A DNA stretch of 64,000 bases from Nitrospira sp. (GCA_016784355.1 JADHUV010000009.1:8746-72745); one strand, 5' to 3'. Positions 6,053 to 9,992 are shown, numbered from the stretch's first letter. Made by a program: numbers and translations. The notes: generated by a model not told the origin, from the sequence alone.

Positions 6053-8443
6053 ATGGCAAAAGGCTGTTGTGATACAGGAAGAGATGAAAGAATAAAGCAG
6101 TATAGCTACAGTGAGTGGGAGATCGATGATCCCAATGTCAGGAAGTTCAGTCCTGAAGATATTCTTTTTACTCCTGAACATATTGTCAAACGCAAAAAGG
6201 GCGTGTCACTTCTGATTGATCCGAAGTCGCCTAACTGGATAAGTATGAACCAGACAGGTGCTGAAATTATCAAGCTGTGTGATGGTAAACATACTATTTC
6301 TGAGATTCAGGATGCGATATGCAAGAAATACGCTGTCAGCAATAAAAAGCAGGTAAAGGAAGAGGTCTCTCAGTTTCTCAGTGCTGCCGGACTGCTTGAA
6401 TTTGTCTCAGATATAAAATTTGAAAGACCGGCATACCCCGGCAGAAGCAAGGTAATAGCTCCCAAAAAACTCGATGAGCTGTGGATGTACTACACCATGG
6501 CATGTAACCTCAAGTGTAAGCACTGTCTGGTGGATGCGGGCAAGGTTTTGCGCAAAGAGCTTAGCACCGAGGAGTTTATGAAGGTGGTGGACGAAGGGGT
6601 CAAGCTTGGAGTTAAGAGGTTTTATATAACCGGCGGTGAGCCCTTTATAAAAGAAGGGATCTTTGATCTTATTAAATACATCACAAAAACAAAGAAGCGG
6701 GAGCTTATAGTTCTTACCAATGCGACCCTCTTTGATGATGACAAGATAGCTAAGCTGGCAAAGCTTGCCGGCCCGAGACTTCTACTTCAGGTGAGTCTCG
6801 ATGGGCACACTGCGGCCATGCATGACGAACTTCGCGGCAAGGGAAGTTTTGATAAGGCAGTAGACGGGATTAAAAAGCTGATCAGTATTGGCATAACACC
6901 GATTATCTCTACGGCGATCAGCAAGCTGAATGAAAAGGACATTTCAAAGACTTCCAAGTATCTCTCAGGGCTTGGCATTCAGGAGCACAATGTGCTTTGG
7001 ATGCATACGAAGGGTCGAGGTGCAAGTAATATAAGTGATCTTTATATACCCTCTGATGATGTTGCAAAGGCAATGAAAAGAATCAAGAGTGCTTATAAAG
7101 AGCAGGAGATGATCCTGGATAATGTAGAGTCGCTGAAAGTCAGGGTCAGGACTAAAAGAGGCAGAAAGAATGACCTCTGCAATAACTGTTATGAAAAGGT
7201 ATGCGTTAATTCCGACGGGAATGTATATCCCTGTGCATCTCTGAACGGAGATAAGGCGTTTAATGCCGGCTCAGTCAGGAAGAAATCCCTTGAGGACATA
7301 TGGCTTAATTCAAAGGTCATGGATACGGGCCGTAAACTCAGCGTACAGGATAAGGAGGAATGCAGTAAGTGCTACCTTGAATATTTCTGCGGCGGAGGAT
7401 GTACAGCTCATAGTTACTATGCAAGTGAAGTGGATACGGGCAAGGGTTCTATAACTGCGGTTGACCCTTACTGCTCAACCTATAAATCACTTTTTGATGA
7501 CATTATATGGGAGCTCGCTTCTGAAGGTGTCAGGACGTCTAATGATAAGACGGGATATACTGTTCCCCTTGTATATAATGCGATGGATACAAAGCTTCCC
7601 GGACATTTTGGCAAGGGTCTTAAGAAGATTGATAAAAACTTTGATGTCGGCTGTTATCACTGCTCATGTGTTTTATCTGTTGATGTTGAGGGCGATGATG
7701 AGATCTGTAAGCCCGAGATTAAAGGGAATGTTACAAAGACAGTGAAAAAGAAATTTTCAGATGCTGCTTATAACCCTGTTGCGGATTACTATTGTCCTAC
7801 CGGTTATGATCCTAAAGATCTTGCTCATATACCTAAAGAGGTAATGGATGTATCTTACGGCTGCGGAAATCCTGCTGCCCTTGCGGATATAGGCGAGGCA
7901 GAGACCATTGTCGACCTTGGTGCGGGTGGTGGCATTGACTGCTTTATAGCTGCAAAAAAACTTGGACCAAAAGGCAAGGTCATTGGTATAGATCTGACTG
8001 AGGAAATGGTTGTTCAGGCTAGTAAGAGCGCTAAGAAGGTTGCAAAGGTTCTGGGCTATGATGTAGTGGAGTTCAGAGCCGGAAACATAATGGAGCTGCC
8101 GGTTGAGGATAACTCTGTTGATTTAGTTATATCGAACTGCGTTATAAATCTCACGGAAGACAAGTGGCAGGCACTGAGAGAGATATATCGTATTCTTAAA
8201 CCAGGCGGCAGGTTCTATATTTCTGATATAGTTTCGGATAAGCCGGTTCCTGGATACCTGAAGCGTGATAAAGAACTCTGGAATGCATGTCTTTCAGGGG
8301 CACTTACAGATAAGAATTTCAAGGCAACGGCAGATGATGCCGGCTTTAGCAAGGTAACACTGACAAACGGGTATCTTTATAAAAAGGTTGAATTTATCAA
8401 TTTTTACTCGGTAACATTAAAAGGTATCAAACCTAAAAAGTAA
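6053..8443 (+). CDS. tri-domain fusion: PqqD-like RRE + radical SAM/SPASM maturase-like core + ArsM-type SAM-dependent methyltransferase
   Basis: PqqD-like aa 50-117 (ISMNQTGAEIIKLCDGKHTISEIQDAI...FLSAAGLLE). CX3CX2C at aa 151-158 (CNLKCKHC, nt 6503-6526). SPASM Cys clusters aa 375-450 (CNNCYEKVCVNSDGNVYPC, CSKCYLEYFCGGGC). ArsM-like aa about 565-796 (SYGCGNPAAL, DLGAGGGIDCFIAA, ISNCVINL, ELWNACLSGAL). Confidence 0.8.
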   Translation: MAKGCCDTGRDERIKQYSYSEWEIDDPNVRKFSPEDILFTPEHIVKRKKGVSLLIDPKSPNWISMNQTGAEIIKLCDGKHTISEIQDAICKKYAVSNKKQVKEEVSQFLSAAGLLEFVSDIKFERPAYPGRSKVIAPKKLDELWMYYTMACNLKCKHCLVDAGKVLRKELSTEEFMKVVDEGVKLGVKRFYITGGEPFIKEGIFDLIKYITKTKKRELIVLTNATLFDDDKIAKLAKLAGPRLLLQVSLDGHTAAMHDELRGKGSFDKAVDGIKKLISIGITPIISTAISKLNEKDISKTSKYLSGLGIQEHNVLWMHTKGRGASNISDLYIPSDDVAKAMKRIKSAYKEQEMILDNVESLKVRVRTKRGRKNDLCNNCYEKVCVNSDGNVYPCASLNGDKAFNAGSVRKKSLEDIWLNSKVMDTGRKLSVQDKEECSKCYLEYFCGGGCTAHSYYASEVDTGKGSITAVDPYCSTYKSLFDDIIWELASEGVRTSNDKTGYTVPLVYNAMDTKLPGHFGKGLKKIDKNFDVGCYHCSCVLSVDVEGDDEICKPEIKGNVTKTVKKKFSDAAYNPVADYYCPTGYDPKDLAHIPKEVMDVSYGCGNPAALADIGEAETIVDLGAGGGIDCFIAAKKLGPKGKVIGIDLTEEMVVQASKSAKKVAKVLGYDVVEFRAGNIMELPVEDNSVDLVISNCVINLTEDKWQALREIYRILKPGGRFYISDIVSDKPVPGYLKRDKELWNACLSGALTDKNFKATADDAGFSKVTLTNGYLYKKVEFINFYSVTLKGIKPKK

Positions 8444-8507
8444 GTTGCGGATATAAGTCCTGAGGGTAATCCCAGGGCAATGGTTCGCAAGAAAAGAGGT
8501 CGGATTT

Positions 8508-9992
8508 ATGAAAGTTACATTAGTCAATGCGCAGGTACTGGATGGCAACAATGTTGTTCCGCCATTGGGGCTTCTGTATGTGGCCGGCTCGCTGGAAGCT
8601 GCCGGACATGAGGTACAGATCTTTGATGCGGATCCCGAACACGAAACAACCATGCTTCAGCAGATCAAGGACTTTAATCCGGGACTGATAGGCATAAGCT
8701 TTCTGACGGTAGCATATGAACGTGCGGAGGGTCTTTGTAAGGCTCTGAAAAAAGTTCTTCCGGATGTAATGTATTGCGCAGGAGGCGTGCATGCCACGGT
8801 CAAGCCTGAAGAAACATTGAAGGCGTTTGACCTTGATTTGATAATTATGGGTGAAGGCGAGCACACCATGGTAGATTTATGTAACAGGCTCTCAAAGAAT
8901 GAGAGTATTGAGGATGCCCCTGGATTGCTTTATCAAAAAGACGGCGCGATTGTCAGGACTGAACCAAGAGAGCTTATTCAGGATCTTGACTCCATACCAT
9001 TTCCTGCCAGACACCTTATTGATATGACCCCGTATCTGAAGCCCCCGGGAATTATCAGGGGTTATGCTGATAAGAATCAGACAACAATAGTGACCAGTCG
9101 AGGCTGTCCTTTTAAGTGTATTTATTGCGGAAGTCATAATATATTCGGCAGAAAGACCAGGCGGCGCTCATATCAGAACGTTGTTGATGAGATTGAACAT
9201 CTTGCTAAAAATTTCGGTATCAGAGGTATATATTATTGTGATGACACCTTTACCCTTAGTTCCAGGTGGGTTAAGGAATACTGTAATGAATTGAAGAAGA
9301 GAAAACTTGATATTAAGTGGGGCTGTCAGTCGAGGGTTGATCAGACAGACAGGGCACTTATGATAGAGATGAAGTCCTCAGGTCTCGTGCAGCTTGATTT
9401 CGGTGTTGAGAGTGGTTCTGAAAAGATACTTAAGGTACTTGGTAAGGGCGGAGCAGGTGACAGGACATCCCAGATCAAGGAATCCTTCAAGCTTTGCAAG
9501 GAACTTGATATTAGGACTCTTGCTACGTTTATCATTGGTAATCCGACAGAGACAAAGGAGGATATCGATGAGAGCTTTGCGGTAGCAAAAGAAATACAGG
9601 CGGATTATACCGCATTTTATTTCCTGACTCCTTATCCGGGTACGGACATTTATGATCAGGCTATTGCAAATGGATGGCTTGATCCGAACCTGCCTTTCTC
9701 TGAGATATGGGCACACAGGCAGCCGGAACTGCCTCTGATGGCTATTACATTTAGTCAGGAAGATTTAAGGGATATCAGACGTAATCTGCAGAATCATTTC
9801 TTCAGAAAAAATTATCTCGTAAGATCAGGGAATATTAGTTTTTATTCCATCCTGTCTACGATATTTTTCAGGAATCCGGGAATATTCCTGACGGCCTTTG
9901 GGAAATTTCTCCGGACCCGTAGGATGGATTACATAGTTGAGACTTTGAATGCTGAGTACTGGAGAATTAAAAAGTATGAGGGTGCAGGTTAA
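8508..9992 (+). CDS. B12-binding domain radical SAM protein (class B rSAM, probable methyltransferase)
   Basis: N-terminal cobalamin-binding Rossmann-like region; CX3CX2C at aa 200-207 (CPFKCIYC, nt 9105-9128); 65-nt gap to upstream gene, same strand. Confidence 0.8.
   Translation: MKVTLVNAQVLDGNNVVPPLGLLYVAGSLEAAGHEVQIFDADPEHETTMLQQIKDFNPGLIGISFLTVAYERAEGLCKALKKVLPDVMYCAGGVHATVKPEETLKAFDLDLIIMGEGEHTMVDLCNRLSKNESIEDAPGLLYQKDGAIVRTEPRELIQDLDSIPFPARHLIDMTPYLKPPGIIRGYADKNQTTIVTSRGCPFKCIYCGSHNIFGRKTRRRSYQNVVDEIEHLAKNFGIRGIYYCDDTFTLSSRWVKEYCNELKKRKLDIKWGCQSRVDQTDRALMIEMKSSGLVQLDFGVESGSEKILKVLGKGGAGDRTSQIKESFKLCKELDIRTLATFIIGNPTETKEDIDESFAVAKEIQADYTAFYFLTPYPGTDIYDQAIANGWLDPNLPFSEIWAHRQPELPLMAITFSQEDLRDIRRNLQNHFFRKNYLVRSGNISFYSILSTIFFRNPGIFLTAFGKFLRTRRMDYIVETLNAEYWRIKKYEGAG

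Follow-up and report, generated by a model that had tools for sequence, protein, structure and literature searches.

The fusion protein and its B12-type partner

[quoted passage not shown] The question is raised by a two-gene operon at positions 6053-9992 of a 64,000-nucleotide (nt) stretch of Nitrospira sp. DNA (GCA_016784355.1 JADHUV010000009.1:8746-72745), the whole of which is called the window below. Exact matches to its two products, a tri-fusion protein of 796 amino acids (aa; MBC8412279.1) and a 494-aa partner (MBC8412280.1), come from a 'Nitrospira sp.' metagenome-assembled genome (MAG). Our analysis suggests that the operon most likely makes a complex organoarsenical by an undescribed route, a reading to which we give about an even chance, in which the ArsM-type module would methylate As(III), the radical SAM module would form a further carbon-arsenic (C-As) bond and the partner would tailor the product. 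The original prediction, made from the sequence of the window by itself, had offered a pathway in which a peptide or a small molecule is radical-modified, methylated and possibly conjugated to a metalloid. Its metalloid alternative is the better supported, because the wider family of the radical SAM module replaces the arsenosugar-type enzyme ArsS in arsenosugar-type clusters, while its peptide flavour did not hold up: no precursor is conserved near the pair, which is inherited vertically among housekeeping genes.

The tri-fusion runs from an N-terminal Cys-Cys tail through a recognition element of the kind found in enzymes for peptides that are ribosomally synthesized and then post-translationally modified (RiPP recognition element, RRE), a radical SAM core, a SPASM domain and an HCxC motif to the ArsM-type methyltransferase (Table 1). 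All segments of the fusion claimed originally score as such in Pfam, namely PqqD (PF05402; aa 54-110, 46 bits, cutoff 23.4), Radical_SAM (aa 147-302, 85 bits), SPASM (PF13186; aa 376-441, 37.5 bits, cutoff 21.5) and Methyltransf_31 (aa 615-758, 115 bits), including the N-terminal and middle parts, which do score as PqqD and SPASM. The partner, described in the same prediction as a radical SAM enzyme that depends on B12, does have B12-binding (PF02310; aa 15-124, 91.5 bits) and Radical_SAM (PF04055; aa 194-357, 77 bits) domains. Neither protein reaches the cutoff of any NCBIfam model, and a literature search found no description of the fusion, of the family or of DUF5714 (a domain fused to some relatives), and no experimental work on any member. 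The view that no characterised family has this architecture thus stands; the architecture is new to curation, yet common in metagenomes.

The C-terminal module is of the ArsM type

In the field, a protein is counted as ArsM when it has a SAM-binding domain and at least three of the four cysteines C44, C72, C174 and C224 of CmArsM (PMC5552862). The window protein has a class I SAM-binding domain (the Methyltransf_31 match, with the motif DLGAGGGID) and all four cysteines, as C581, C604, C696 and C746. C604 aligns with CmArsM C72 (query residue 587 falling on residue 55 of the chain), C696 and C746, the cysteines of SNCV and C-x-SGA, fall in the aligned SNCV and ECLGGA blocks of CmArsM, and C581 corresponds by position to C44, lying 23 residues before C604, as judged by eye. 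In sequence the module aligns to solved ArsM structures at 1e-32 (5evj) and 1e-30 (CmArsM 4fr0/4kw7) with the YGCG, SNCV and C-x-SGA cysteines in register, which bears out the likeness to ArsM that had been proposed. A Foldseek search with the last 240 residues of the predicted structure returned CmArsM, CrArsM and human AS3MT at 33-37% identity and a root-mean-square deviation (rmsd) of 2.2-3.4 Å, the fit to CmArsM 4fr0 having an rmsd of 2.2 Å over 230 columns. Across 129 fusion proteins from several phyla, none of the four cysteines varies. The best NCBIfam match is PRK11873 (arsenite methyltransferase; 240.4 bits, its cutoff of 263 not being reached), and the methyl_ArsM model gives 202 bits against a cutoff of 500; for scale, an ArsM encoded beside a true ArsS scores 201.7 bits on PRK11873. 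Judged by these alignments, the C-terminal part of the protein is a genuine ArsM-type module.

The radical SAM module and its relation to ArsS and ArsL

An AlphaFold model of the tri-fusion (129-sequence alignment; predicted local distance difference test score, pLDDT, 85; predicted template modelling score 0.75) shows a canonical RRE at aa 44-114, with three strands followed by three helices at pLDDT >90, and after it the radical SAM/SPASM body, a disordered linker (545-557) and the methyltransferase. The N-terminal tail is predicted to be disordered (pLDDT 40-53). It is specific to the Nitrospirota clade, in which 63 of 71 proteins have Cys-Cys within the first 15 residues, and it is a candidate As(III)-capturing arm. 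The radical SAM motif CX3CX2C (C151/C155/C158) is invariant in the 129 sequences, and the SPASM cysteines are C376/C379/C384/C394, C437-x2-C440-x5-C446-x3-C450 and C474. The module ends in a motif common to all relatives, VGx[YF]HCxCVL, which in the window protein places H536, C537 and C539. These three residues are conserved in unfused homologues, where they lie 8-17 residues from the C-terminus, and C539, the one extra cysteine conserved universally, is found unchanged in every fusion.

In the reaction of ArsS, which is redox-neutral, the 5'-deoxyadenosyl radical is added to dimethyl-As(III) (PMC13598754), and ArsL binds As(III) via a C-terminal CCxxC (bioRxiv 10.64898/2026.04.29.721666). 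The C-terminus of ArsS reads GSHCFGC, and selenoprotein forms of ArsS carry GxxU, which fits a cysteine after the histidine. By analogy with these two C-termini, the HCxC motif (C537/C539) is proposed as the site that would hold the arsenical, and a terminal His-Cys motif appears to recur in radical SAM enzymes acting on arsenic. The resemblance of [YF]HCxC to the Cys/Sec motif of ArsS lies outside the region aligned by hhalign, which matches the module to ArsS with a probability of 98% over 234 columns of the radical SAM core only. In BLASTP the module shares 28% identity with a true ArsS (452 bits on TIGR04167) over 147 aa, and the best 25 NCBIfam matches of the tri-fusion do not include TIGR04167. 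The module thus appears to be a distant homologue of ArsS that clearly belongs to another family.

The ArsS and ArsM system likewise pairs a radical SAM enzyme with an ArsM-type methyltransferase, ends its radical SAM protein in a His-Cys motif of apparently analogous kind and is surrounded by accessory genes (TIGR04282, TIGR04283) that relatives of the present module share. In contrast to ArsS and ArsM, which are separate proteins, both activities lie in one chain here, and the clade of the window has a B12-type radical SAM partner and no nearby glycosyltransferases. The arsinothricin route of ArsL (NF040542) and ArsM also needs two genes, one for the radical SAM enzyme that makes the C-As bond and one for the methylating ArsM. 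Like the partner here, ArsL is one of the B12-binding-domain radical SAM enzymes, and it holds As(III) with C-terminal cysteines; however, the partner scores 74 bits on the ArsL model against a cutoff of 450 and has no Cys-rich tail, and the fused module is SPASM-type, not ArsL-type.

Relatives of the module occupy the position of ArsS

In total, 150 loci were sorted into class A (the clade of the window), class B (unfused radical SAM modules) and class C (distant ArsM fusions). The end motif is HCxC in every class A (71/71) and class B (18/18) protein and HxxC in all 25 of class C; the SPASM motif CX2CX5CX3C (437-450 in the window protein) is present in 71 of 71, 13 of 18 and none of 25, respectively, and the ArsM motifs in 69 of 71, none and 25 of 25. 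An RRE-like domain is kept across the whole superfamily. The B12 partner is always there in class A, and a C-terminal Cys-Cys is found in 24 of the 25 class C proteins, which come from Elusimicrobia, Omnitrophica, Nitrospinae, Deltaproteobacteria and Nitrospiria. An exhaustive search of 50%-identity representatives gave about fifty further clusters that have a homologous module fused to an ArsM-type domain (700-1079 aa, 30-45% identical), some of the distant fusions carrying an extra DUF5714 or family 2 glycosyltransferase (GT2) domain and some having the methyltransferase first. Since the class A module stands nearer to the unfused homologues, which share its terminal HCxC (42-47% identity), than to the class C modules (31-40%), fusion to ArsM has probably occurred more than once.

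Other fusions of the same module (P0131, P0142, P0146, P0149, P0139, P0133, P0127, P0140 and P0145) include ArsM with DUF5714 (~1000-1080 aa), ArsM with GT2 and methyltransferase-first types; P0127 and P0140 join it to non-ArsM methyltransferases and P0145, as read by eye, to a TusA-like C-terminal domain. A stand-alone TusA-like open reading frame (ORF) lies downstream in four loci (L113, L125, L141 and L142).

The neighbourhoods of these relatives resemble arsenosugar-type gene clusters. Class B modules have, on the same strand, genes for a DedA/UptA-like membrane protein, a flippase-like protein and a PgsA-type phosphatidyltransferase or glycerophosphodiesterase, together with a GT2 that passes TIGR04283 ('arsenosugar biosynthesis glycosyltransferase'; 253 bits, cutoff 182) and a product that passes TIGR04282, a model of the same name (189-200 bits, cutoff 134). 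At least one accessory gene accompanies the module in 14 of the 18 class B loci and in 13 of the 31 from class C, and the lipid and sugar genes around the relatives as a whole are PgsA-like, flippase-like, DedA-like, GT2 and GT87-like. Recurrent neighbours in class C are an ArsR-family regulator (5 loci), PHO4 (6), rhodanese (7) and thioredoxin-like genes (8). Arsenate, too, is taken up by carriers of the PHO4 type; one PHO4 gene lies 14 nt before a distant fusion (L070:6881-7987), and in one member of the window's clade PhoU_div and PHO4 genes follow the pair (L002:14100-15708). A canonical cluster in an Acidobacteriota MAG (L064) consists of ArsM, a hydroxylase-like gene, a TIGR04283 glycosyltransferase (225 bits) and ArsS (TIGR04167, 452 bits), whereas no ArsS gene is found in any of the 150 class A, B and C loci, so that the module is the only radical SAM enzyme there in the role of ArsS. 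It holds the position that ArsS has in the canonical arsenosugar-type cluster.

A proposed route to an organoarsenical

In the route we infer, arsenic would be the substrate, captured as As(III) by the cysteine thiolates of the N-terminal Cys-Cys arm and the four ArsM cysteines. Methylation by the ArsM module, with SAM, would give a methyl- or dimethyl-As(III) species, and this toxic, oxygen-labile methyl-As(III) would pass within the same chain to HCxC (C537/C539), where a SAM-derived radical would form a further C-As bond, a reaction with a precedent in ArsS. Fusion of both activities would channel the toxic and labile intermediate. A dimethyl-As(III) would need one thiolate, which fits C539 as the single universal extra cysteine. 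In a last step the B12 partner would modify the carbon skeleton of the product, for example its ribosyl or adenosyl part. The order of these steps is likewise proposed, as is the whole role assigned to the partner.

The SPASM cluster motif has been lost from all 25 distant ArsM fusions, which retain the cysteine at the junction and those of ArsM. This loss is compatible, by analogy, with a redox-neutral radical addition as in ArsS, a chemistry without auxiliary clusters. As for the RRE, one idea suggested by the sequences is that it might grip a Cys-rich, arsenic-loaded tail, which would be the N-terminal Cys-Cys in class A (63/71) or the C-terminal Cys-Cys in class C (24/25).

To our knowledge only three enzyme types make C-As bonds, ArsM, ArsS and ArsL. 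A bolder form of the organoarsenical reading, which we put forward tentatively and think rather unlikely, is that the module represents a third, independent family of C-As-forming radical SAM enzymes after ArsS and ArsL, in which the RRE and, within this clade, the SPASM clusters, kept from the peptide-handling equipment of RiPP maturases, would grip the enzyme's own arsenic-loaded Cys-rich tail or a carrier peptide and, with the B12 enzyme, build an undescribed organoarsenical in anaerobic subsurface Thermodesulfovibrionia. Candidate products would then be an arsenic-bearing peptide, or an arseno-nucleoside or arsenosugar that has been rearranged or C-methylated.

Oxygenic phototrophs and a few soil bacteria account for most of the complex arsenic natural products known. 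If the organoarsenical route is correct, a large unannotated family spanning Nitrospirota, Elusimicrobia, Omnitrophica, Nitrospinae, Deltaproteobacteria and (by contig labels) Acidobacteria would make such compounds in anoxic groundwater, sediments and the deep subsurface, which would matter for how mobile and how toxic arsenic is in aquifers. Enzymologists would gain a methyltransferase that passes a toxic intermediate to a radical enzyme within one chain, as well as an RRE domain employed outside classical RiPP biosynthesis. With two genes and simple substrates, the system is directly testable.

Several observations weigh against this route. The N-terminal half folds like peptide-modifying enzymes and has a well-formed RRE and the cysteines of two auxiliary clusters, whereas ArsS has neither RRE nor SPASM domain. 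None of 28 class A metagenome loci, and one of 57 genome loci, has accessory transferases near the pair, the sole accessory gene of class A being TIGR04282-like (L048); apart from it, ArsS, TIGR04282 and TIGR04283 genes were sought in the 64-kb window and the clade loci and none was found. As class A loci are without these transferases, the arsenic link for the window's own clade is, on the homology evidence, one step removed. TIGR04282 and TIGR04283 in turn owe the word 'arsenosugar' in their names to genome context, and no ArsM gene lies within 8 kb of the unfused class B loci. No ars resistance gene was seen among the 36 window ORFs scanned with Pfam, the other ORFs being read by eye. The window protein is without a Cys-rich C-terminal tail, while many relatives have the GCCxCG-type tail typical of bacterial ArsM, and ArsM-type enzymes can methylate other soft metalloids too. 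The partner, finally, falls in no curated family, its scores on BchE (204 bits, cutoff 481) and HpnJ (197 bits, cutoff 578) being far below the cutoffs.

Other readings of the operon

Modification of a peptide or protein survives best among the alternatives, although we consider it improbable. The RRE would recruit a peptide encoded elsewhere, the SPASM radical SAM module would crosslink or otherwise modify it and the methyltransferase and B12 enzyme would methylate it, with arsenic absent or only attached to the peptide. This would account for the PqqD score and the high-confidence RRE fold, for the RRE-like domain kept across the superfamily and for the full set of SPASM cysteines. Foldseek with the N-terminal half returned the RRE-bearing SkfB, SuiB and CteB as top matches, and SkfB, CteB, SuiB, AlbA and StsB, which share the order RRE, radical SAM, SPASM, are the best matches for aa 40-490. 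The best NCBIfam radical SAM matches are sactipeptide-type maturases too, but all lie far under cutoff (StsB 164 of 625 bits, WgkB 138 of 650, AlbA 106 of 850), and the mycofactocin maturase model gives 133 of 265 bits. Compared with the RRE-SPASM maturases, the tri-fusion adds an arsenic methyltransferase and a terminal HCxC, and its pair has no precursor gene beside it. When all ORFs of 18-90 aa lying up to ~700 nt from the pair were clustered, no conserved small ORF emerged in ~57 loci, the largest cluster being present in 8 of them and looking like shadow ORFs of neighbouring genes, and none is conserved within ~900 nt of 55 distant relatives; a co-located precursor peptide is therefore rejected. 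The upstream regions contain no conserved coding block and align poorly outside promoter-like blocks, and the variable housekeeping flanks hold neither protease nor exporter. The four As(III)-binding cysteines are kept, which a peptide methylase would not need, and the relatives are found in sugar and lipid clusters, not RiPP clusters.

Less probable again is a pathway without arsenic, leading to a cofactor, a tetrapyrrole or a membrane lipid, in which a NirJ/AhbD-like SPASM enzyme, a repurposed ArsM-like methyltransferase and a BchE/HpnJ-like B12 enzyme would work on a shared small-molecule or lipid substrate. The tri-fusion scores 150 bits on NirJ2 and 134 bits on AhbD, the partner is matched by BchE and HpnJ as given above, lipid head-group genes surround the relatives, and the module also occurs fused to non-ArsM methyltransferases and a TusA-like domain. 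The family scores are, however, 2-4 fold under their cutoffs, as is typical of generic superfamily similarity, and the tetrapyrrole version (NirJ/AhbD with BchE) is rejected on that ground; the invariance of the four ArsM cysteines, the ArsR and PHO4 neighbours and the ArsS-type accessory set point instead to arsenic.

Least probable is detoxification of a metalloid and nothing more, in which ArsM would methylate As(III), Sb, Se or Te for volatilisation and the radical SAM/SPASM module and B12 enzyme would be accessory under anoxia (reduction, electron supply or cobalamin methyl transfer) without a new C-As skeleton, since the complete and typical ArsM module, the ArsM-typical Cys-rich tails of relatives, the anaerobic subsurface and groundwater hosts and the B12-binding domain of the partner, all of which would suit it, are set against the established sufficiency of stand-alone ArsM for methylation in anaerobes, the strict conservation of a 550-aa radical SAM module with its own invariant cysteine motif and of a partner with 217 of 494 residues invariant, both of which argue for catalysis, and the association of relatives with glycosyl- and phosphatidyltransferases, not ars operons.

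The partner as a proposed tailoring enzyme

Under the organoarsenical reading the partner is the proposed tailoring enzyme. It has the class B architecture of radical SAM enzymes (a designation separate from the locus classes above), sharing an N-terminal B12-binding domain and a radical SAM core with BchE, HpnJ, AprD4, OxsB, TsrM and TokK, but differs from these in being a member of no curated family; besides the scores already given, it reaches 163 of 575 bits on the Sden_1168 P-methyltransferase model. The 217 invariant residues were counted over 65 orthologues and include five cysteines (C125, C200, C204, C207 and C330). Because it has no Cys-rich tail, the partner probably acts on carbon rather than arsenic. 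Its nearest solved structure is AprD4, for the radical SAM core only (1e-28), and methyl transfer is not to be assumed, because this closest solved relative is a dehydratase. HpnJ and OxsB rearrange sugar or deoxyribose rings, and HpnJ works downstream of a radical SAM adenosylation step, a possible parallel that serves as a lead only. By this analogy one may speculate that the partner could remodel the ribosyl part of an adenosylated arsenical, methylation being an equally possible, and equally speculative, activity.

Distribution and inheritance of the pair

The full architecture recurs in more than 120 clusters at 90% identity (63-80% identical), all from Nitrospirota or Thermodesulfovibrionia MAGs with generic names, and the sequences of the clade merge into one cluster at 50% identity. 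Among GTDB species representatives 57 loci carry the fusion gene. The pair is found in every one of ~55 Thermodesulfovibrionia species genomes with enough flanking DNA except L044, in which a 100-N scaffold gap (L044:9971-10070) interrupts the fusion gene and no partner follows the gap; in all 48 loci that reach far enough and are free of assembly gaps, the partner comes after the fusion gene. In another locus it is reduced to a 61-aa ORF (L093:2644-2829), a pseudogene or an assembly error. The uncultured hosts, to go by their MAG names, are anaerobes living in the subsurface and in groundwater.

The flanks among which the pair is vertically inherited vary, and comprise a Lon/M50 peptidase block, pentose-phosphate genes or, in this window, peptidoglycan-recycling genes. 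The last set surrounds the pair (653-4121 and 10070-11449) and consists of an AmiA-like amidase, an AmpG-like major facilitator superfamily permease, a glycoside hydrolase family 3 (NagZ-like) enzyme and a Mur-ligase-family (Mpl-like) gene; parts of it adjoin the pair in ~9 loci. A subclade at 61-63% identity has two genes directly upstream of the fusion (L075:1177-1884, L096:1647-2339 and the upstream membrane proteins), which by eye, from their N-terminal sequence, encode a DPM1/AglJ-like GT2 and a large membrane protein and hint at a glycolipid link inside the Nitrospirota clade too.

Operon structure, regulation and neighbouring genes

The two genes lie on the same strand and appear to share an operon as originally described, the spacing between the ORFs being 64 nt rather than the 65 nt given at the time. 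The strong terminator reported to close it is confirmed, with a hairpin of -24.3 kcal/mol (z = -6.4 against shuffles) followed by seven U; it sits between convergent genes and may work both ways. The coordinates of all features are collected in Table 1.

Table 1. Features of the operon and its regulator in the window, counted from the first nucleotide of the stretch
Feature	Position	Strand	Details
GAF / sigma-54 activator / HTH_8 regulator	4151..5686	-	divergent from the pair
Tri-fusion gene	6053..8443	+	796 aa; MBC8412279.1 / MBL7048740.1
N-terminal tail	6053..6157	+	aa 1-35; invariant C5-C6, R10, R13, Y17, W22, F32
PqqD-like RRE domain	6182..6394	+	aa 44-114; PqqD 46 bits, model pLDDT >90
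Radical SAM core of tri-fusion	6491..6958	+	aa 147-302; CX3CX2C at C151/C155/C158
SPASM domain	7178..7474	+	aa 376-474; full cysteine set for two auxiliary clusters
VGCYHCSCVL motif	7646..7675	+	aa 532-541; end of radical SAM module
ArsM-type As(III) SAM methyltransferase module	7721..8443	+	aa 557-796; C581, C604, C696, C746
Partner gene	8508..9992	+	494 aa; MBC8412280.1; B12-binding-domain radical SAM
B12-binding domain of partner	8550..8879	+	aa 15-124; PF02310 91.5 bits
Radical SAM core of partner	9087..9578	+	aa 194-357; CX3CX2C at C200/C204/C207
Intrinsic terminator	10009..10051	+	hairpin after partner gene, closes operon

The divergent activator is conserved beside the pair in 21 of ~57 loci. 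A sigma-54 promoter in front of the pair is rejected, as a strict -24/-12 pattern gave one chance-level match (L001) in 38 upstream regions, and a scan of the window allowing two mismatches gave nothing in 5687-6052 and chance numbers overall (30 matches, 33 expected). Alignment of the upstream regions instead shows sigma-70-like -35 and -10 elements and a conserved block, TAACATCAGG..CTTATATCAAC. In several loci a non-coding block, TAATAnTAACATCAGGT..CTTATATCAAC, lies between the activator and the fusion gene (e.g. L005:7533-7896 and L028:7601-8003) and is possibly a regulator binding site, although it aligns poorly in the window itself. A search for RNA families in 5500-10300 found no riboswitch, the sole match being a sub-threshold, chance-level one to the snoRNA sR55.

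Farther downstream, GGGCATGTAAGTTGCA at 13014-13029 (+) resembles a sigma-54 -24/-12 element, the count of this pattern over the whole window being at chance, and 82 nt downstream of it lies a Cys-rich 112-aa ORF of no Pfam family (13112-13450, +). This ORF and a neighbouring SORL-like gene adjoin the GAF/sigma-54 activator in two other loci (L006 and L051), and because of this adjacency the activator beside the pair may control the 112-aa ORF instead. About 6 kb from the pair, a phosphoribosyltransferase and a PNP_UDP_1 phosphorylase of the type that salvages methylthioadenosine and 5'-deoxyadenosine are encoded (16107-17426, -), which may be a coincidence. Also on that strand are what looks like a BatD/MoxR-type (AAA_3) cluster at 17564-25898, of which two genes were scanned, and, at 13567-15975, a gene for a multihaem cytochrome c of 802 aa with fused TPR and HEAT repeats.

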